A DNA stretch of 62,102 nt, filler included, from Asterionella formosa (Eukaryota), in the NCBI GenBank assembly GCA_002256025.1. It is 17 parts of 17 records of this genome, joined end to end, with 100 filler letters (N's around TTAATTAATTAA, not from the genome) between each part and the next. Parts side by side here need not be neighbours in the genome. Positions count along the whole stretch, not along the records: positions 18,340 to 21,907 come from NKIB01014051.1; 16 more parts are not named here. The stretch is one strand, 5' to 3'. Positions 2,113 through 62,102 of this stretch are shown one piece after another; the stretch's first letter is position 1; every line of letters starts with the position of its first letter. A program made the position numbers and the translations under genes. The notes beneath the pieces were generated by a model that was not told the DNA's origin, searched no databases, and worked only from the letters and a program-made list of their open reading frames with translations.

Positions 2113-2336
2113 TGTACCGGTAACATACCGGGTATCTTGATTTATGTTTTGGATACAATTACCGGTATTTGGACCATGCGATCTTAACATAAATTACACC
2201 GGGAAATACTCCTACATATCATATGTACTGTGTATGTGCCGTAGACTATATCCATTTGTGAGTTGATCCCTCCTTGCCATTATTTCACCCTTGCCAGGTT
2301 CCAGCAAACTATTCCACCGGTACTGAAACAAGCAGA

Positions 2337-3539
2337 ATGAGAACGCTACCTCTAGTCTCCATGTCCCTCATCATGTCAGCGACCACTGAATGGACCAGCG
2401 CATTCAGCCTCCATCGGACACACAACGCAATACGACCTTTACTGCGCATTCCAATGCACCTAGTACCCCTGAAAGCATCCTCTTCGAAGGCACTCATCAA
2501 GCCTCACAATGCGTCTGCCAGTGCTGGAGAGGGAGCCATGGATGCTGGAAGCATGGCGTCGTACTCGAGTCGCCGTCCTAATAGCAGCAGTTTGCCCTTT
2601 TGGAAAGTCCTGTGGCAATTCACAAGACCTCACACTCTGATTGGCTCTGCGTTGGCCATTCCGGCATTGCATGCGCTAGCAGCAACATCAATGTCCAGTT
2701 TCTTTTCGGCTGCAAACGCTATTGCCATGATATACGCCATGGTACCGTCGCTATTGATGAACTTGTACATTACAGGTTTGAATCAAATCACCGACGTGGA
2801 AATTGACAAGGTCAATAAACCAAACTTACCCATTGCTGCTGGCGAATTATCGTCAAAAACAGCCACTCTTGTTGTGGTTATTGCCTTAATCGCATCGCTC
2901 TGGATGGGACAGGCTCATACATTACTAGGATCTCAGGGACTTAATGTTGCACTTTGGGGATCGGGCATTTTAGGGACCCTATACAGTTTGGAGCCATTTC
3001 GCTTGAAGAGATTTCCACTCTTGGCGGCGTTTTGCATCGTGGCAGTACGAGGGACACTCATTAATGCTAGTTTCTTCGCACACGCCAAAGCAGCAGCTTA
3101 CGAGTCTACAGGGAGTGTCTTGCACTATCTTGCCAATGACCCAAAGTGTCGTTTAAGTTGCCTCTTTTTTGGTGTCTTTGGCGTTGTCATTGCCTTGATG
3201 AAGGATGTTCCTGATGTTGAAGGGGACGAAATTGCACAAGTCAGGACGTTTTCTGTCAGAGTTGGTCAAGACAGGATCTTTTCGTGGATGAAACGTCTGC
3301 TCACATTGCTATTTATGAGCTATGGTGCTGCATTTTTTCGTGCAGCCTTTACTGCAACATCGACCATTTTGGCATGCTCCAGAACCCTCGTGGCTACATT
3401 GGCTGTCATTGGTGCTATTAGTGTCAACAAAGAAGCGGTTGGAGTGGATCCTAAGGATAGAAGCCAAGTGTATGGATACTATATGCACATGTGGAAGTTG
3501 TTCTATTTATGCTATGCCATACTACCGTTGGCAAGGTAG
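2337..3539 (+). CDS. Plastid-targeted UbiA-family homogentisate prenyltransferase (most like homogentisate phytyltransferase, tocopherol synthesis)
   Basis: FTRPHTLIG, NQITDVEIDKVNKP, IALMKDVPDVEGD and MWKLFY motifs. Signal peptide ending TSAF, resembling the diatom ASAF motif, followed by a transit-like region. Start placed at ATG 2337. Confidence 0.85.
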   Translation: MRTLPLVSMSLIMSATTEWTSAFSLHRTHNAIRPLLRIPMHLVPLKASSSKALIKPHNASASAGEGAMDAGSMASYSSRRPNSSSLPFWKVLWQFTRPHTLIGSALAIPALHALAATSMSSFFSAANAIAMIYAMVPSLLMNLYITGLNQITDVEIDKVNKPNLPIAAGELSSKTATLVVVIALIASLWMGQAHTLLGSQGLNVALWGSGILGTLYSLEPFRLKRFPLLAAFCIVAVRGTLINASFFAHAKAAAYESTGSVLHYLANDPKCRLSCLFFGVFGVVIALMKDVPDVEGDEIAQVRTFSVRVGQDRIFSWMKRLLTLLFMSYGAAFFRAAFTATSTILACSRTLVATLAVIGAISVNKEAVGVDPKDRSQVYGYYMHMWKLFYLCYAILPLAR

Positions 3540-3671: not shown

Positions 3672-4587
3672 CAGTTGGTAGATGCTACGTATCTGTAGCT
3701 CTCACGCAGTAAAATTTGCTAGAAAAATGTTTCTACACAATTTGTTTGTTTTACTTTGTTTGCTAATAATTGTTTTTATAAAAGAGTGAGCTTAATGTAA
3801 ATTTGAATGTATGATTTTGAAACTTCCAAGCTCATGCATGTTTCAAAATAGAGGTGATCTTTGGAGGCGAGGTTCATTTGTGTTCCCAACTTGAACTGAG
3901 AATAAACTACATCCTCTTCCTAAATACACATTTGTCTTAATCTTGGCCTGTCTCAACTTAGGCCAGATGCTGTTTGATCGAAGACTGCTTACAGAATGAT
4001 CCTGTTAATCATAACTAGATCATACCTAGTTTGCTTCTTTAATGTTCCTTGATGTTGCGGACATATCTGTAATTGTCTAGTCAATCATTTATTGATTTGG
4101 CTTCTAGGTCTGATCGTCTTCTAGAGTCCATTTAACAGGTTAGAGAGAACTTCTCCTGAAAGTTCCTCTCTCAACTGTGGCATTTTACACGCGATATTTA
4201 ACCATGTAATCTTGAATCAATCATCTAGTGGATTGTGGTACATGTTTCTAATCAGGTCACTAGAGGCGAGAATATATTGACACTCATAACCTGATCAGGA
4301 ATCAGGAATCTCTATGTGTTTCAACTATATTGAATCAAATACCGGTAGTCTACCGGTAAATCAAAAAGAATATCCTCAAGATAAGAATTCGAAAACCATC
4401 TGCACCAGCAGTGAAACCCATAATTCTGCTATCAAATCCTTTATGTAGGGGCGATCTTTACAGAGATTATGTCCAAACTTTTATAAACCTTGAATTCCAT
4501 GGTGAGGAATCTTACTTGAAGATTACCACAAACAGAAGAAACACAAGAAGAACCAATGGAATGGATCAGCACTGCGCATGTGCCCCA

Positions 4588-18555: not shown

Positions 18556-20266
18556 TCTTAACGAATTATTTTCACTTGTTGTTGATCAATTGGTTGAACA
18601 GGTGAGAAGAGTACAGTCAACTGGAAGCAGAATATGTAATTATCAATACTGTCGTCGTGATGGTGGGCGCATCGACTGAAACCATTATTGCTATCAATTG
18701 TTTTCTATATTCGGCTCAAGAGATACCCAGGTACCAGGTAGCTAAAGAGGATGGAACCACTATACCGGTAACTATTTTTTTAATATGTATATCGGAAATA
18801 CATACCGGCATGTAAATGTAGTCTGGAATTGGGTGGACGGCGATAGCCTACCGGTATAAAACCAACGCAAGTCTGTCCACGTTCAGTACAATTACCCGGT
18901 TGCTAAACTGTAGACGTACCCCTAAATAGGCAGTTGAAGTTGGTACTACACATGCGTCGGGACCAGGTTCCAGGAATAGGAAGCCCACGTAGCTATTAGT
19001 CCAACCACTCATGAATTATGTACCAGTAGTTCATCACTTTCCATCACACCTGACTGTTTTGCACTTGAGCTTATCAATAATTTTTCGACTTTTCGAATGA
19101 CAATTATTTCAACATAGTAGGCAGTGTTGAAATGCACCCAAGGCAAAAAATATAATATTGCTTTTGGGATGAGAGTCACAAGGGAATTTCTAGGGAAGCC
19201 TCTTCCAGACCCTTGGTTGTCTACCATATCCACAATGCCACAATGGAGCAAGGCGAAGCAAAGCTCCATTGCTGCAATCCTTGCTCCTCACAAGTCTGAT
19301 GCTATCCACCATTAAAAGCTAGCTATGCAGTAAAGTACCAGCTGGCATGCTCAGTACTTTTTCAGGAAATTTTCCCGCCTTTCTCACAAGATTAGGTATC
19401 CTCCATCACCTCTCCTCCGCTACATCAAGGTAGGTGTCACCATTCACATTTGTTGGGGATCTCTACTACATTTATCGCAAAGTGGCGTTATGCATTCTAT
19501 GATTCTATCCCTGTATTTTACATTTAAGGCGCCATAAAAATGAAGTTATTTAATATCATATTTGTAGGATCAGTGTATCACACACTACTAAGTGGCACAG
19601 GTTTTTCAGCATCTGATACTTTTGCTATAATTTGTATGATCACATGATCATACTTAAAATGGTAATAGGATCACACTCAGCATACCACTGGTTTCTGTTA
19701 TTTGTCAGAAACGATTCTAATGCATGAAATAAGCATTGTAATTATTGCAACATCTTCTAGTTTGAATTAGGGCCAGTGATTTTATGATAAAATTCATCTG
19801 CTATTTACAATTTTATCACAAAATGAACATACAATATTTATAAATTGCTCAGAAACTTTTCTTATCAATATCATCAGCAAACCTTAGTATTAGGGGCTGA
19901 GACCAACAACAAGACGAGAAACGCAACATGTAAGCATTATGGTGATCGTCAATTCGCTTATGTGAAACTCGGTCTACTTGGTCATGCGCTTATAGGAGAA
20001 TATTTTCAAGGAACCTTGCCAATAGTTTATGAAATACAACCAGTATGATATGCTAGATAAAGCAAACCGGTATGAATAACACAACGAAGCAAAATTACCG
20101 CAACTTGCAGGTACCGAATCAGCTTAATGCATTTATATTATGGATAAGGACGGACGTGATGTGGTCATACCAAATATCCATGTGAAGCAAATCGAAGGAG
20201 TCCGGACTGAGAAATTGAGATACCGACAATACAACTATTAAGTGCTAGCTACCACCGTTGCCAGGT

Positions 20267-20496
20267 TCCTGGTGAGCGTTGTTAGACTTCGTGCTAACAT
20301 AATCAGGTCCCGTTAGGGGCCTCACGCAAGTGAGGCATTTGATGGGGTCCCACACACCTCCACAGTCCAACGCCCCGATGGATAGGGCAGACCGCGTACT
20401 GGTCAAGACTGGGGCTGCCCACAGGTTTTTAGTGAGTGAAAGTCTCACACTAACTCGCCCAGGTGGAGGGGCGGGGTGCCTTGCTGGACACCAGGA
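20267..20496 (+). ncRNA. Structured RNA-like dispersed repeat, homologous to 50640-50878
   Basis: Shared blocks with compensatory changes, GNRA loops and a closing helix tcctggtg/caccagga. Confidence 0.55.
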
Positions 20497-20759
20497 CATC
20501 AAATCAACCACAACAGGGCAGCTACTTCTGCAAATTAAAAGAATCATTTATATCGATCAAGGGTATGGTAAACTTAGTGGCACAGCCCATGATTTTTCTG
20601 TATATAATGATAATTTTACTGCTATTTCTATATAGAACATATAGATTATGGTTTGACCCAAATATATTCCTGAAAAAAAGTACCATAATATTTTAGAAAA
20701 GTAAAAAATGCGTCACTTTAGACAACATAAATTCGAAAAAGTGCCGTAAACAGCGTCTT

Positions 20760-20872
20760 AGATTTAGTTGAACAACCTCGAGATAAATAGTTGAACAACC
20801 TTCAGATTAATTCTTGAATGACCTTCAGATAAATAGTTGAACGAACTTCTGATGATTAGTTGAATGAACTTC
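20760..20872. repeat. Minisatellite, about 5 x 23 bp (agataaatagttgaacaaccttc)
   Basis: Units start at about 20760, 20781, 20804, 20827 and 20850, with no spacers. Confidence 0.8.
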
Positions 20873-21018
20873 TTCGGAAAAAATGAGGCTTAGATGTGCA
20901 ACCAGACTATGATGACTAATACAAAGGGGAATGGTCTAGCTTACCTCATGAGGTGGCGGGTTCCTGCATTCTCCATCTGTCGTCCTTTTATGTTGTCCCT
21001 GGGTTCTGGTGTGTGAGG

Positions 21019-25675: not shown

Positions 25676-28600
25676 CAATGCAAGAGTCGTAAGGGTTTAA
25701 CACAAAACCCATCTCTTTTAGGGTGTTGTGGAATAAATCATACCATAGTAGGGCAGACTTGACGCACCCATAGATCGCTTTCACTAGCCTGACGTACAAC
25801 ACCTTGTTTCCTTTCTCGTTGGACACAAATTCGTGTGCTCTGGGTTCATGTTGCATAATATATCGACTGATTCACCAGTGAATTTCATGACAACGAAATC
25901 ATCCATATCTGCTTTCAAATACGCACCCGCCACATCTGCTGTGGCGACATCTCTTCCTTCATGTGCATCAATCATGATGGACAACATGAGTGCATCGGTG
26001 GATACTGTTGGAGATGCCGTCTGCGACTTGTCATAAAGCGATCGCTGCGGTCTCCCGTCAGCTACTGTACTTCCCTTGAGGCGCCAGTCCCTCTTCTCTT
26101 TGATGAGATTGATGGCTCGGAGCGCTCCCATCCTCTGTTCCCTGGTAAGGGAGTTCGCACTTACGGGTTCGTACACATCCAGCTCCTCTAGTTATGCAAA
26201 TTCTTTCATCAGGGCGGCCTCTGCCGCTTTCCCGTGTTTCTTTATTCCCGCCTTCGCGGTCATCTGGTTCATTACATACCCAAAAATATGTTTACTTGTG
26301 TTGTCGTCTGCGTATGGCATCGTTGTTCGAAATCCTCGTTGTACGAACTGTCTTGGTGGAAAGTATGACTTGTTGCTATGCGGACATCAATGGCCTGCTT
26401 GAACTGTTCACTTATGGCTGCCCGGCGTGGTTGTCGGAGATTATATGGTCTGTGTTCCTCTTCCGCCAACGCTCCTTGATCTACCACCTCGTAGTCGTTG
26501 TCAGAACCCCCGCTTCTTGATTGGCTACTTCAATGATCGCTGTCTCTTCCATAGGCGCTCCTTGGTTTTCGTCGATAGGCGCCCCTTGTTCCAAGTGCGC
26601 TCCTTGGTTTTCGTTGTGTTCTTGTTGTATGTAGTCATCGTAGACAAACGCGACGTCATCAATGTCGATCGTGTTTGTGTTTGGGTCTCCTGGGTTCGGC
26701 TCGACTGGATTTGGCTCGGCTAGCGGTGCATCGTCCAAAGCCGTAGGGTGTGGCCCGTCATGGAGCAGATCGGCAACTTCGTGATCATCGATGGCATCAA
26801 AGTCCGTGGGGTTAAAATCGTCAATAGGTTGGCGTGCGGCAGGCTTGTAGTCCCGGTCGTATTCGTCGTTGTCGATGTGGTGATTGGCGCGCCATTATAC
26901 AACTAGGCCTCTGACCTGGATGGGGGGCTGCCCCTCGTGTACCGTGAGCGCCTCCACGCGGGCAATGGCGGTGTCCGTCATGGGCAACTCCGTCCAGTTG
27001 TGTCGGGAAATCTTTTTGCCGGTTGCGAGAGACATGAAGTAGTAGTCACCTTGGGCATTGCCAGTGGGGGTGAGGGCAATTGCCCCGAGGGAACGCGCTT
27101 GAAGGGTGTTGGATGGGTCGTTGTCTTCAAAAACTTGGACGTCCCAAACTCAATGCGCATTTGGTTGTATTCTGGGTTGGCAGCGCCCGTGACAATGCAT
27201 GCAGGGCTCATGGTGTCTGAGATGCCGTTTGCCCATGGGAACTGGTTTAGACATCGAACGGCATCGATCACCATATGGTTGATGATCACCCGTGGAAGAC
27301 GCTTGAAAGGTAGGCCGTGTGCACACGAGCGTAGTCGCTCCTTGATGGTTCGGATGGACCGTTCCACTTCACCAACGTGACTGTCAGCAGGTACAATGTT
27401 TAATGCGATAGGTTGCAAGTCCTCACGAACGCACTCGAGTTGGACCGCACTCCGAATTTTGCGTAGAATGGTAGTCTTGGTCCGGTCGGGAACCAGGTCC
27501 ACGGTTCGGAAACCAATACCGCGTGAGATGGTATGAAAAAATGGTAGACCCTGCACAAAGAAGAAATCGGCGCACAACGTCACGTTGTGGTGATGCTCCA
27601 GGATTGGGGCAGGAATCGGTTCGGCCACAAACGTTGGCGCTCTTGGAGCGGCGCGCGACCGCGTAGTTTTACCTTTTATGGCAGCGATGTCTGGACCGTA
27701 AATAATGAGGGCGCGCTTGGCGTCGTCTGGCGTCACTGGGCAATTTCTAATCAAGTTGTTCCGTAGGATGGATTGGAATTCCGCCTCGGCAGGCCGCCCG
27801 ATCTTTCTATACAAAACTCTGGCTGCATTGGCTGATTGAATTTCACGTTGTGAGAATAGTTTCTTCTGTTCTGCTACTGTGGATAGCATGGTATAACCTG
27901 TAACACTGTCGTTAGTATCGTTGTTGCAACTAAACACATATAGTCCTGAGGGGTGCTCAAGAAATTTCATCACAGTTCCATCGAGTCTATGGACAAGCAT
28001 CGCGGGCTCGTCCGCAGAGTCCATGGTGACGCGGCATACCTTGCGCACCTCAGCAAGGGAGAGGATGTTGGCAATTGATTCACGGTTGTACCAAACCTTA
28101 CCCAAGTTGGGAAAATCTCCTACCATGTTGGAGTCCTGGTAGCCTCCATTTGTGAGCGCCCTGAGTACGTAAGAGCTACGCCGGATGTTGCTGAGCATGT
28201 CGGTGTTCTTGAACACGGAGATTGTCGACTGCGAGTCGAGAAGGATCCACTTAGGATCAATCCCAGGGTCGCCGGTCTGTGCAAGCATGTATGCATACTG
28301 CGTCAATGTAGTGCCTGAGTTCGTCGATCCCTGCCTGTCAGGGCAGTCTCCCACGTAGTGTCCTAGGCTTTGGCAGTTGTAACAGATGATGCCATCATGT
28401 AACACTCCATTATTGCCTGCGATTTCGCCACGGCCGTTGCGCAAACGTCATTGCACTGGCCTCAGGGCTTCCAGTCGGCTGGGAGCGTGGTGTATCTGTC
28501 CTGACGCTGGTGTTTGTTGGAGTTCTGTAGTTGACGAGAAGGCTTTGTGCTGACAACAAATCGGTGGGGTACTGGTCAATTCCCATTGCATACTGGTTTG

Positions 28601-29238
28601 ACAGGTCAGTGATGAGGGTGCCATACCTGGTGGGGTCAGCACTTCGAATCAAAGCGATTGCAAGGGTGCGTTCACGTGCAATCTCCTTTCGCTCTTCAGT
28701 GCTACGCCCATTCCCGTCGTGATCCTGGAAGGGTACCAGTTTGTAATTTGCTGCCACGGTACCGCCATGGTACTCGATGGTCTCAGCCCATCCTCGCAAA
28801 CACTCGACGTAGTCTTCTGCGGACTGTCCTTGTAACTGACGACAATTGAGGAAACTGGTCTGGGCGTCCAAAAGTGCAATGAAACCATTCCTGCTCTGAT
28901 CGAACTGTAAAGTAATCGACTTGATCTGTTTTAGAAGCCAAAAGCAATCGTTGTTGGCAGTCTTGTCCTTGTAGTCATCGTGCGTTTTGACCTTTGCCTT
29001 CATGTCATCACTACACTGGCCCCAAATCACCGCATACACTGTTGCTAGGTTGCTCTTCAGGGTATGATTGCGCTTGACATACGTTTTTACTTCTTCTGCG
29101 AAAATCATTTTCATGGTCAGTCCTGCATCGTCATCTAGGTCATCTGGCATGTCTACCATGGGAACCGCCATGGTGTCGGCAAACAAAGGGGCAAGGTCTT
29201 CAGAGTACTTCAGTGTTTTCCTCACATATCCGTCTAGA
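25676..29238 (-). mobile_element. Ty1/Copia (CoDi-like) retrotransposon internal region, defective
   Basis: Gag, Zn knuckle CYNCQSLGHYVGDC, protease WILLDSQST, integrase LCADFFFV...HVGEVERSIRTIKER and RT ADVAGAYL/KAIYGCVKSALLWY, in Copia order. Several frameshifts; the central integrase segment appears deleted. Confidence 0.93.
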
Positions 29239-47614: not shown

Positions 47615-49076
47615 AGGCCCGGCTGATTCTAGGAGGTCACATGATCGATGCCTCAGGACACGATACATACACGACCAACATGAAAGGAATCAGTGCCAGA
47701 ATCCTCATGCTTATTGCAAGTGCAAACGAACTCAGGGTATTAACAGGGGATATAGGGAATGCGTATTTGTATGCCAGCACAAATGAAAAAAAATTCTGCA
47801 GGCTAGGAGAAGAGTTCAGCATAGCAGGGCATGGGGCAACTGGAAGGATTGCAGTGCTTGAAAAGGCACTGTATGGCACCAAGAGCGCTGCAAACCGATG
47901 GCATGCACATCTAGCAGACACCCTACGATGTATGGGTTTTGCAACAAGCAGATATGATGCAGAAATTTGGTACCAAGCACGTAGTGATGGCTCTGGCTAT
48001 GATTACATCGGGACAAATACTGATGACCTGATGATAGTGGCAAAGAACCCGGAAGGGTACTTTGAGGTGCTACAGGAGAAGTATACGATAAAGAAGATTG
48101 GCCCATCTACATTTCACCTGGGATGTGATTACGTAAGGGGACCAGATGGTAAATGGAGCATAGGAACAGAAACCTACGTCAAGGAAACCCTGGAGAGAGT
48201 GAAAACCATGCTAGGCCGGAAGGACCTTGGCAAGGATGATGCACATATCTCACCAACATTCCATCCAGAGCTAGACAATTCACAACTACTAGATGTCGAC
48301 CAACACAGGTTGTACCAACAACTAGTTGGAATAGCCCAGTGGTTGATAACATGTGGTAGGCTTGATTTTTGCTATGCCATTTCGTCTTTAAGTCGATTCA
48401 GCTCTGCACCGCGGATAAAACATCTAAATGCACTGGAGCGAGTATTCAAGTATATCAACAAGAATAGAGCACTGGCATTAAGATAAATCCGGAAAATTAT
48501 GTCTTACCAAAGCATGACATCATGTACGAGAGCGCAGATTGGACTGAGCAGTACCCGGGAGCAATCGAAGAAATGGATGAGAAGTTCCCTACTCCACTAG
48601 GGAAGGAACTTAGCACAACCTTATACTTTGATTCAGACCACGCCCATGATCAGAAAACGAGAAGCTCTATTACTGGGATGATTGCCTTCATAGGATCTAC
48701 CCCAGTAACATGGGCATCGAAGCGTCAAGGGGCAATAGCAACTAGCACTTACACTGCAGAGCTATGTGCGGGTAGAACGGCTGCTGAGGAAGCCATCAGC
48801 ATTAGATACATGCTGAGATCTTTAGGGGTGCCCGTGACGACACGAACGCTATTATTGGGAGACAACCTAGGCTCGCTCCAAAGTACCTCGAATCCTGGGT
48901 CTGAATGCCATAAGAAACATAGTATGGTTAATTACCACTGTGTGCGAGAGTGTTGTGCATCTGGAATCATCCAACTCGCAAAGGTAGACACTAAGTTGAA
49001 TCTTAGCGATGGCTTTACCAAAGCTATCGAGAAGTCTATCTACCTTGATCATAGAAGATGCCATTTTGCAGCGTGA
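47615..49076 (+). mobile_element. Ty1/Copia RT-RNase H, frameshifted near 48486
   Basis: GDIGNAYL, LEKALYG, TNTDDL, YFDSDHA, WASKRQGAIATSTYTAE and NLSDGFTK motifs. Confidence 0.92.
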
Positions 49077-49544: not shown

Positions 49545-50068
49545 CAAAGATGGAACAGAGCTGTGTACAGTCGGGTTTTTGGGAAAGAACATTGCTACTT
49601 TGGAGAAAACAAAATTTCAATATTAAGACAAGTTTGCTCCAATCATTGAGCTGTATGATGAAAGTGACAATCAAACAAAGAAGATTAGGAGCAACCACAA
49701 CCTTGGCTGGAGTGGCTTCATTTCGACTTTTTGATGACATCCAAAATCATGAGTAATGGATTGTTCTAAATGGTGCTTCTTTGAAAAAGGTTCAAAAATC
49801 TTGATTGAACAAGGATAGATTCAATACAAATTAACTAGTAGCTGAACATTATAAGACTTTAAACTGGTCATTGATTTAATTTCTATTTGTCAACAAAATA
49901 AATAATATATTTTCCATTTGCAAGTCAGACATGTAGTTTGAAAACGATATATTAAACAAATAAAAGATTTAATCACTAAATATTATCCAAATATACTACA
50001 ACTAAAGTAGACCAGCTTTGTATCCAATACTGGCTCAGGTCTTTGTGATCAACGACACAGTTACCTTG

Positions 50069-50172
50069 GCCCCTCACGGGATGGAAACTTGGCCGTAGTT
50101 GAGGGGCCCTCTCCCTTGATGTGTTGGCGGAATCTGCGTATTTCGTCCACACAAGGTGACCAATGTCCATCC
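50069..50172 (+). ncRNA. Candidate HDV-like self-cleaving ribozyme (variant)
   Basis: P1, P2, P3, L3, P1.1, P4 and J4/2 (CCAA) occur in the canonical order at the 5' junction of the insertion. Confidence 0.55.
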
Positions 50173-50983
50173 ACGAGCTGATAGGAGGCCGCTTTTCGCT
50201 TATAGGCGATTTAACGCTTATGTCCTGGGCCGCCCTCTTCTAAATAAAAGAGGGTACATTATCCAAGGCTTCTCTGGTCATTTCCAAAGAAGATATATTA
50301 GGGTGAAGCGTACATGGGGACCCAAAAATCTTGTCCCACGGTTACTAGGTAGGGGCTCTGGGACTCCCAGAGTCCCTGTCCCACCATCCTCTTGTCACTA
50401 GAGAGGAAAATTGTGAGGGTAGAAAAGAATGCTAAGTCCCTGGGGTGTCGGGACATGATGCCTTAATCTTGGGTAAGAGGTTGCATTTATGGGGTCCCTC
50501 ACTGTGCAGGGTGGTTAGACCAAAAAACCACCAGCCACAAGAGCAAATGGAACTGTTCCGCGGAGGGAGCAGCCCATTTGTTGGGTAGTTAGGTATGGGA
50601 CAGACGCAACTATGAATGACAGCCTAGCAGGCATAAGCCCCTGTTGGGCGTCAGTTCAGTGCTGTAAGACTTTGTGCTTACAGAAATGGGTCCCAGATAG
50701 GGGGGCTCCGCTCTGCTCCTCTCCTGGGGTCCCACACACCTCCACGGGCCAACGCACCAATGTGTAGGGCAGACCGAGTACTGGTCAAGACTGGGGAGTC
50801 ACAAGGTTTTTTAGTGAGTGCAAGTCTCACACTGCTTCGCCACCGTGGTGGGCGGCGGGGCGCCTCACCGGGCACAGGTTTGACAAACCTGTGGATGAAG
50901 TAGGAATTCTTTCTCAACACGCTATGACGTGAAGAGACCGGATAGGTTTTTTCCCTTGTCCCTGTGAACAGCCAAAAAAAAAA
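50073..50983 (+). mobile_element. Non-autonomous poly(A) retroposon (about 0.9 kb) with a 15-bp TSD
   Basis: cagttaccttggccc at 50058-50072 and 50986-51000, and A10 at 50974-50983. Removing the insert restores the pogo frame. Confidence 0.85.
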
Positions 50984-51523
50984 CCCAGTTACCTTGGCCC
51001 ATGGAGCCTCCACCCATTGCGCAACATTATCCCTTATAACTTTTTTATTTTCTATGTTTTGAATCATAAAATTCTCCCATGCAGCCTGCACATAGCCTTT
51101 GAATGGCTTGTTGACGCCCACATCCAGTACTTGAGCGAAGCTGGGATGTGTAGCCAGGGGTTNNNNNNNNNNNNNNNNNNNNNNNNNNNNNNNNNNNNNN
51201 NNNNNNTTAATTAATTAANNNNNNNNNNNNNNNNNNNNNNNNNNNNNNNNNNNNNNNNNNNNCTTCATACATAAATATACAGATATGTTGATCAGACCGA
51301 TCGAAATTCTGACGTGGTCACCTCGACAGAATTCTTCTTCCCGATTTTCCTCGGAACTAAATATTGCATGGTTTATAACACTTTATAATTTTAGTTTGTG
51401 TTTTCTCCTTCTTTGATCGTCGCTTCAAACTCTTTGTATTCCTCGTGAGCCTCTTCAATCGTTAGCGTGTTTGTTGAGATCGGAACAAATTGCTGATAAA
51501 TTTTCAAATGATGTGATACCCAA

Positions 51524-59907: not shown

Positions 59908-62102
59908 ATGAGTGGCAAAGGAAAGTTTACCAAGAAGACTCAAGCCAAGGGCAAGTTTCAAGCCAAGGGAGGGAGCAATATTGCTTCTCACTCCATCAAG
60001 AAGTCAGTCAATGACTATAACTACTTCCTCGGATCATCGAAGCAGGCATCTGACTATGAGACTACTACTGAGTTCCTCATCAATCACATCAAGAAAGTGT
60101 TTGACTATGGCAACAACATAGAAACCGCGCTCAAGTTATTAGAACCAATGAGCACATTGGCATGGAAGCCAAGAATGCAAGTGAGCATTGCAACATCAGA
60201 AGAAGATCGGACTGCAGAGAATCGACAATATGAGATTGAGTTCAAGGCTGACTACGACACCTACAGTAAAAGGGTACAGGCCTACGAAAACAATGATACC
60301 AAGGCGTATGCATTGCTCTGGGAAAGATGCAACAAAGCCATGAAGAAGAAGATCGAAGCAAGATCCGATTACAATAGGATCAGAAATAACCCAATAACAT
60401 TGCTTATGGCAATTAAAGAACACACACTAAATTTTCAAGAAAATCGATATTCTATGTCAATCATTTTAGATGCGATGAGAACGCTTTTATTTACAAAGCA
60501 GAAGAAGGAGAAAGTCTACAAGACTACACCAAGAGATTTTGTGTGGCACGAGATGTGCTCAAGTCACACATGGGAGGACCCATTATCCTCACCAAGTTCG
60601 TTGAAGCCATGGATGGATACAACGAGACCGACATCAAGCAACGAGATAAATTTCGCGAACAAGCTTTCAGTCAATTTATGGCATATTTATATCTCGACAA
60701 TGCCGATCAGGCCAAATACGGATCAATTATGACCGGGCTGAACACTCAACAATCACTCAGAAATGATCAATACCCAAAGAGCATCACCAAATCAAATAAT
60801 GTTCTCAGCAATCATCGGTTTGATGTAACAAATAAATCTGTCTACAAGAAACCAGGAGATAATGATAAAGAGAGGAAACAAAAGGATGCAGGGAAGGAAG
60901 ACGGAGATGTGAACTTATCGTTTGCACTTTTAGAAGGAAAATGTTACTGCTGCGGAAAAGTAGGTCACAAATCTCTTCGTGCCAAGACAAGAACAAACCC
61001 AAAGAGGAATTGGCAATTAACAAGGTTCAAAGCCATGCAAAGGCACAGGCTAATACATCTGACACAAGTACAGTTACCTCTGTTAATTCCAACAACCCGC
61101 CATCATCACAGGCTTCACAACAAGCAAATGTCAATCAATTTGGATGGGCGGGAGCTCATATGAAACTACAATTTTACCAAGCATCTGACATGTGTGACTG
61201 GATACTATTGGATAATCAATCAAGTGTCACAGTCTTTTGCAATCCAAAAATGGTTGAAAACATTCAAATGTCAACCAATGGAAGCATGCACCTGGCCACA
61301 AATGGTGGATCCATGGTCACTAATATGAAGGCTGATCTTCCACAGTGGGGAGAAGTATGTTTTAATGAAAAGGCAATCACAAACATCTTCAGTTATGCCG
61401 AAATGGCAGATAGGTACAGAATTACCTACGTATCCGAGAAAGAAGATGCATTCATTGTTCATTTGCCTGACAAAACAGTTCGATTTGAAAGCATTGGGAT
61501 GAGCTTATATGTTTTCAAGCCAACTACAAGAATTAGAGCGGAGAATGCTCAATTGTTAAATACACTTGAAGAAAACAAAACATTTTACACTGAACGCCAA
61601 TTTCAGAGAGCTAAGCGAGCTCGTGATCTATTTCATGCCTTGGGTACACCGTCAATTAACGATTTCAAGGCTATAATTCGTATGAATACAATCAACAATA
61701 ATCCAGTGACTACCGATAATATCAAAATGGCAGAGAAAATTTTTGGACCTGACATTGGAACACTAAAAGGCAAGACAACTTGTTGCAAGCCGCTGCCAGT
61801 CGTGAACGACTATATCGAGATTCCTAAGGAGCTTATCCAAGCTCGCTCAATGCGAAGTGATTCTTTGCATGGATGGAATGAAAGTGAATGGACAATCATT
61901 TCTCAAGACAATTTCTCGAAACATTATGTATAGGACAGCGCAATGGGTCAAGAATCAGACAGCTGAAGTCTATGGAGATGCTTTGATTCAAGTATTCCGT
62001 GTTAATAATACCGGAGGATTTAAAATTACAACAATCCACTGTGACAACGAGTTTCGACCTTTGATGGAACAAATTTCCAATGAATTTCAAGTCACTATGA
62101 AC
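59908..62102 (+). mobile_element. Ty1/Copia (CoDi-like) gag-protease-integrase, frameshifted and running off the window
   Basis: Gag, CYCCGKVGH knuckle, protease WILLDNQSS and integrase IHCDNEF, with at least three frameshifts. Confidence 0.92.

Follow-up and report, generated by a model that had tools for sequence, protein, structure and literature searches.

Diverged copies of a very probable LINE 3′ end, one of them within a probable non-coding derivative, in the diatom Asterionella formosa

Most LINEs are held to be 'stringent', in that their reverse transcriptase (RT) recognises a specific stem-loop in the 3′ tail, a tail that is shared by the partner SINEs, whereas mammalian L1 relies on poly(A) instead (PMC4176376, in the part concerned with template recognition). 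The same part of that source describes the eel element UnaL2 and the zebrafish elements ZfL2-1 and ZfL2-2, in which an autonomous LINE and a non-autonomous SINE have the 3′ tail in common, hairpins lie in the 3′UTR upstream of the tail, and recognition by the element's own RT has been proposed (PMC4176376). In Trypanosoma cruzi the autonomous L1Tc is accompanied by a truncated, non-autonomous NARTc (PMC5814959). In R2, a structured 3′UTR is bound by the element's protein to start target-primed reverse transcription (PMC11194090). Diatom genomes are dominated by LTR elements, and the only non-LTR family named in the pertinent part of PMC2806351 is RTE-like and belongs to one species.

The stretch of DNA analysed here, which we call the window, is 62,102 nt long and is built from about 17 contigs of Asterionella formosa, short ones of ~3.55 kb, joined by N44/12-base/N44 spacers. 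The initial annotation had described 20267–20496 (copy A) as the diverged second copy of an RNA domain of about 230 nt, the other copy (copy B) lying at 50640–50878, and had ascribed to this domain covariation, a possible pseudoknot and three alternative functions. We argue that the conserved stretch very probably represents the 3′ end of a LINE (non-LTR retrotransposon) in the diatom genome. The explanation that we favour, and consider very probable as a whole, is that it combines the coding C-terminus of the LINE with a UTR tail that may act as a signal for the RT, copy A being dead and copy B non-autonomous. A LINE 3′ end together with a non-autonomous derivative is a repeat of a known kind rather than a novel RNA gene.

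Like UnaL2 and the ZfL2 elements with their SINEs, the diatom has an autonomous LINE and a non-autonomous element with a shared 3′ tail, and 3′UTR hairpins upstream of that tail whose recognition by the element's own RT we infer from the sequence. Unlike theirs, which end in short repeats, the tail of the diatom LINE ends in poly(A); its best-conserved block is not a terminal stem-loop but spans the stop codon, 100–270 nt from the 3′ end; the non-coding partner, a unit of 0.9 kb, is without a tRNA-like head and resembles an internal-deletion derivative; and the clade differs, the nearest named relatives of the diatom LINE being found in brown algae. With L1Tc and NARTc the diatom pair shares the combination of an autonomous non-LTR element and a shorter non-coding version, in an unrelated host and with unrelated sequence. 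NARTc is reportedly a shorter non-coding version that retains the L1Tc ends. Similarities to human LINE-1 include an ORF with endonuclease and RT, an A-rich tail, target-site duplications and 5′-truncated dead copies, although one long ORF only is seen in the diatom LINE, with which the 0.9-kb unit has specific tail sequence in common, something not required of the L1 passengers Alu and SVA. As in R2, a structured 3′UTR with protein recognition may be envisaged, in the diatom as a proposal from the analysis; however, R2 has a restriction-like endonuclease and an rDNA site where we find an apurinic-type endonuclease and varied flanks, and it shows no sequence or Rfam similarity to the diatom stretch.

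Two copies and the LINE to which they are related

Blastn aligns 20343–20481 with 50725–50865 on the + strand at 82.3% identity over 141 nt, a weaker similarity continuing upstream of this core, and a family profile search of the 62 kb recovers 20254–20499 (E = 4.7e-83) and 50637–50878 (E = 2.6e-68). A 20-mer shared at 20344 and 50726 occurs twice in the window against 0 expected in 100 shuffles, and neither blastn nor the profile search finds a third copy there. The existence of a homologous copy on a different contig, as originally claimed, is thus borne out, and the window holds these two copies only. A search of Rfam had been proposed as a check, and no family is matched: there are no hits at the gathering score over the whole window, and at E up to 10 both copies return short chance matches only, for example an 18-nt hairpin to Chlorobi-1 (E = 0.15). 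Likewise, a viral contig collection scanned with a 19-mer gave no matches, and prokaryote genome contigs scanned with an 18-mer gave eight loci, each matching over 19–24 nt only, which by our own estimate is about the number expected by chance.

Metagenome contigs scanned with an 18-mer from the 3′ half yielded 15 loci, nine of which, from eight contigs, are true homologues. The other six (L012, L014, L015, L018, L021 and L023) were rejected, having only an 18–23-mer in common and unrelated flanks; tblastn of these six with 121 LINE proteins gave no matches. Seven of the nine homologous loci form a major type: among themselves they are at least 99% identical, over as much as 4.3 kb, and they agree with copy A at about 92% over 20253–20499. 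In these contigs a long ORF of the same orientation terminates within the homologous stretch (seen in L019 and L020). The ORF, pieced together from two loci that overlap on one contig, has 1475 aa when read from a GTG, so that the true start may differ, and it contains the domains Exo_endo_phos (1.6e-12) and RVT_1 (2.6e-27). Its best relatives of solved structure are human LINE-1 ORF2p (1.9e-25) and R2 proteins (3e-14), and the first of these matches hints at membership of the L1 clade. The stop codon, TAG, aligns with 20383–20385 and is followed by a 3′UTR of 269 nt and then by a run of at least 8 A, which in two loci is continued by TAAA repeats. Beyond this run the flanks differ among L009, L010, L013, L016 and L019, which argues that the end of the A run is the true 3′ terminus, and LTRs are absent. 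An ORF for RT and endonuclease, an A-rich end and varied flanks together identify the element as a non-LTR retrotransposon.

Among 8000 candidates scored in a protein search, 221 proved to be related to the LINE ORF. They fall into subfamilies at 76–79%, 53–59% and ~40–45% identity, and those with a named source belong to brown algae (Ectocarpus, Pylaiella), a red alga (Galdieria) and fungi. A C-terminal motif, …GQRPxG-stop, is kept in 24 of the 120 relatives listed, many of the others being incomplete, and persists down to ~40% identity; we know of no described function for it. Read depth over the LINE is 287 in run X6 and 231 in run X13, compared with ~3–4 for the flanks of copy A (DNA runs), and an RNA-library run, X15, contains one LINE contig of 4609 nt, which could be DNA carry-over. 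We estimate the family at roughly 70 copies, and it is apparently active.

Some LINE copies are arranged head to tail (L009 at 1–360 on the minus strand, L022, and L019 at 1–55). In L009 and L022, no more than 13 nt beyond the A-rich tail, there begins sequence that leads to the start of the next LINE ORF via two tandem repeats of ~84 nt, and in L019 a 5′-truncated LINE copy begins directly after the A run; such arrangements could reflect insertion into A-rich tails or an effect of assembly. A further variant, at 3926–4146 of L017, has lost the last codons before the stop through a 16-nt deletion and the 5′ arm of the CGCCC hairpin through one of 10 nt, and, since rearranged pieces of the ORF adjoin it, it is taken as a decayed copy.

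Copy A lies on a contig (18340–21907) with a GC content of 0.40 and without long ORFs. Of the interval originally annotated, 119 nt on the 5′ side derive from the last codons of the LINE ORF and the remaining 111 nt are proximal 3′UTR, so it is no self-contained RNA domain. Translated in the frame of the ORF, copy A yields the LINE C-terminus (80–84% over 45 residues). In addition to the normal stop codon, copy A carries a premature TAG at 20314–20316, where the other copies have G at 20315 and thus a Trp codon. When contigs of four public runs are placed on 19900–20900, a high-depth contig covers 20251–20499 only, at ~93% identity, and the high-depth contigs diverge into unlike sequence on both sides; GC is 0.58 within copy A and 0.38 in the rest of its contig. 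Because homology stops at 20499, copy A is without the last ~160 nt of the UTR and without poly(A), and no word of 7 nt or more is shared around it as a target-site duplication. With both ends missing and an in-frame stop, copy A is a dead internal fragment, the limits of which are truncation points and not the ends of an RNA, and it cannot be under selection at its present place. Downstream of it, at a distance of 270 nt, lies a tandem array (20765–20872; 23-nt unit, 4.3 copies, 80% matches). Depth in other runs is also raised at parts of 20614–20885 and at 20070–20137, from which we conclude that these parts belong to other repeat families.

The remainder of the window is consistent with a diatom host. 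Long intron-free ORFs elsewhere in it indicate a gene-dense eukaryote, and an ORF for homogentisate phytyltransferase (2274–3539) has its best named relatives, at 62–64% identity, in pennate diatoms (Seminavis, Phaeodactylum, Bacillariaceae and Epithemia). Tblastn of the window with 242 proteins related to the LINE found nothing beyond the 45 codons of copy A. More retroelement remnants occur at 25784–29225 (−) and 59908–61933 (+): ORFs on the contig 25676–29238 contain a CCHC zinc knuckle and an RVT_2 fragment (under the Pfam cut-off), and the last contig has gag-like ORFs without Pfam matches. Small shares of cover in river, sediment, runoff and estuary sequencing runs are no evidence of habitat. 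The features are collected in the table.

Table. Coordinates in the window of the LINE-derived copies and associated features
Feature	Position	Strand	Evidence
Copy A, internal fragment of LINE 3′ region	20251..20499	+	~92% to 7 metagenome LINE copies
Last 45 LINE ORF codons, remnant	20251..20385	+	tblastn 80–84% to ORF C-terminus
First 114 nt of LINE 3′UTR	20386..20499	+	alignment, pair counts
Ty1/copia-type pol remnant, two ORFs	47641..49076	+	RVT_2 match 1.4e-14
Target-site duplication, left, 15 bp	50058..50072	.	15-mer recurs at 50986–51000
0.9-kb non-coding retroelement containing copy B	50073..50983	+	target-site duplication, empty site
Copy B, homologous to LINE ORF end and proximal 3′UTR	50636..50882	+	alignment, profile, translation
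Terminal block common to LINE, directly before poly(A)	50932..50973	+	82.7% over 52 nt to L009
Target-site duplication, right, 15 bp	50986..51000	.	matches 50058–50072

The non-coding unit around copy B

Copy B belongs to a contig (47615–51162) that also carries two Ty1/copia-type pol ORFs, and the unit of 0.9 kb that contains it was inserted into sequence downstream of this pol remnant. The pol is divided between 47641–48486 and 48522–49076, so that this copy looks broken. The unit ends in A10 (50974–50983), and the corresponding empty site is found in L017, where the same flanks are joined, with the 15-mer present once and without the insertion. The A10 tail, the 15-bp duplication and the empty site together imply that the 0.9-kb unit was itself inserted by retrotransposition; as regards the two copies, a target-site duplication and an empty site are seen for the copy B unit alone. 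The same unit is also present in L020, with a much longer A run.

Copy B keeps the stop codon TAG at 50765–50767, the LINE reading frame being lost upstream of it, and the unit as a whole is without the LINE ORF, and its matches to proteins of the LINE relatives extend over no more than 13 residues. ARAGORN detects no tRNA-like head in 50000–51000, and the unit is accordingly not classed as a tRNA-derived SINE. Near its 5′ end, ~52 nt are 94% identical to the sequence directly after the LINE A-rich tail in L009 and L022, which there leads into the start of the next LINE's ORF; we infer that these ~52 nt represent the LINE 5′ end. The copy B unit is probably a non-autonomous, internally deleted derivative of the LINE.

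The extent to which the LINE and the non-coding unit agree varies along the tail. A core of ~90 nt around and after the stop codon is 87% identical, the former coding part upstream of it 57–73%, and the last ~40 nt before poly(A) ~80%, and the alignment has a gap of 40 nt in the mid-UTR. Just after the core, at 50873–50893, there is a perfect hairpin (cacaggttt/aaacctgtg), which is confined to the copy B type and stands in place of ~40 nt of the LINE mid-UTR.

Hairpins, covariation and the alternatives

The RNA model was examined on an alignment of 11 sequences, 10 of them distinct (copy A, the seven of the major type, the L017 deletion variant, copy B and L020), equivalent to ~2.15 effective sequences. 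Several of the small hairpins originally drawn are indeed present. The stem tgttag/ctaaca (20280–20285/20294–20299) undergoes a two-sided change from U-A to A-U in copy B and has G-U in L020, and the gacc/ggtc hairpin is invariant in all 10 distinct sequences. So is the gtgag/ctcac hairpin, in which the change from GAAA to GCAA is real; its loop, however, is of 7 nt (UGAAAGU/UGCAAGU) and not the GNRA tetraloop that had been proposed. The larger architecture fares less well: the closing helix tcctggtg/caccagga has one pair unpaired in 8 of the 10 sequences and gaps in copy B, the long-range helix cctccac/gtggagg one pair unpaired in 7 of the 10, and, with neither helix conserved, the global fold and the pseudoknot are not supported. 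The covariation claimed for this fold comes down to one pair, which on ~2 effective sequences is not significant. The + strand, chosen as the sense strand, fits the direction of the LINE ORF, and several G-U pairs are consistent with that strand only.

Could the stretch, then, be a LINE 3′ end and nothing more, without any selected RNA structure or signal, its conservation due to coding constraint and common descent and its hairpins mere by-products of a GC-rich sequence? To this alternative we assign somewhat less than an even chance. Among the 36 pairs of the earlier model 26 never vary, 4 change on one side, 5 depart through unpaired cells only and 1 is compensated, at an effective depth of ~2.15 sequences. 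The covariation term of RNAalifold is +0.27, or no net support, with 7 of 75 predicted pairs compensated; taken by itself, the UTR part is no more stably folded than shuffled sequence (z = −0.40, −0.62 and −0.90, the last of these for 20386–20499 of copy A, which carries, besides a small hairpin of 4 bp, those of gacc/ggtc, gtgag/ctcac and CGCCC/GGGCG); and the C-terminal peptide is conserved in distant LINE relatives. Nor is there a convincing stable terminal stem-loop directly before poly(A), where z is +0.52 in the LINE and −1.40 in the copy B unit. Against the absence of a signal speak the unevenness of the conservation, with the core so much better kept than the part where the frame is lost, and the hairpin at 20280–20299, which stays paired through three different pairs, U-A, A-U and G-U. 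A set of six local hairpins (20280–20299; 20319–20336, which has a genuine GCAA loop; gacc/ggtc; gtgag/ctcac; CUCGCCC/GGGGCGGG; and one of 4 bp at 20484–20494) has 7 of 35 pairs compensated, a figure reached in none of 500 shuffles and compared with 0–1 in slid controls, in a set chosen after the sequences had been seen and with 3 of the 7 pairs dependent on a badly aligned part of L020. When these doubtful pairs are set aside, 4 compensated pairs remain, and it is plausible that some local hairpins form on the sense strand.

A free-standing structured RNA gene, ribozyme or IRES-like element, present twice, is very improbable. The whole stretch does fold somewhat better than shuffles on the + strand, modestly so (z = −2.74 for copy A and −1.90 for copy B, with −2.21 and −0.53 on the − strand), and there is the one compensated pair; however, in 8 independent contigs the stretch is continuous with the 1475-aa ORF and its 3′UTR, its 5′ half is coding, Rfam gives no match at the gathering score and, at E up to 10, none of relevance, and the limits of copy A are points of truncation. 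Among the three functions initially suggested, an element linked to RT fits a LINE 3′ end, and nothing was found that speaks for an IRES or a new ribozyme. Inspection by eye, given the LINE ORF context, led us to reject RNase P/MRP, SRP RNA, snRNA, a hammerhead or HDV-like ribozyme and an rRNA expansion segment; organelle DNA, a first idea suggested by the high depth, was likewise discarded once the ORF context was known. Least probable by far, to the point of being negligible, is a protein gene on the minus strand, with ORFs of 100 aa (20245–20547) and 147 aa (50678–51121), for although both frames are open across the copies and have ~36 similar residues in common, they lack a Pfam match above threshold (best E = 0.19), their amino-acid identity, as we counted it on the translations, is roughly equal to the nucleotide identity, the frame on the + strand belongs to the end of the LINE ORF, and the G-U pairs and the A tail agree with the + strand.

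The shared tail as a candidate template signal

The reading of the stretch as a LINE 3′ end assigns different causes to its two halves. With the ORF's final 45 codons at 20251–20385, about half of the conservation can be explained by coding, this half presumably being conserved because it encodes the C-terminus of the LINE protein. The UTR half and the last ~40 nt may be conserved because they carry a signal for the choice of template by the RT. In such a mechanism the LINE RT would recognise the shared blocks of the tail in the template RNA and begin target-primed reverse transcription from it, and the 0.9-kb non-coding unit would make use of the LINE protein by retaining that tail. We put the chances of a tail-recognition role for the shared blocks at close to even, with a slight lean against it. 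The LINE and its non-autonomous partner do have 3′ tail sequence in common, but descent by deletion would look alike: a deletion derivative keeps the tail of its parent by descent under any mode of recognition, and the A-rich tail together with L1 ORF2p as the closest match suits a 'relaxed', poly(A)-recognising element equally well.

A more specific form of this proposal, which we advance tentatively and would expect to fail rather more readily than to hold, is that the block of ~140 nt across the stop codon and the last ~40 nt before poly(A) constitute a structured cis-signal needed by the RT of this stramenopile LINE, and that the 0.9-kb unit would be a parasite keeping just these blocks. 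A literature search at the level of titles and abstracts brought up no account of a LINE in diatoms that shares its tail with a partner.

What had appeared to be a new structured RNA with covariation is read here as a retrotransposon tail, one half of which is coding, and a false lead is thereby cleared. At the same time, the analysis documents in a diatom a LINE family and a mobilised non-coding derivative of 0.9 kb, and the uneven conservation of their shared tail provides a concrete candidate for the signal by which templates are recognised in this LINE lineage. If the specific proposal is true, the diatom would possess a LINE and partner of the 'stringent' kind in which the recognition element extends into the coding region.
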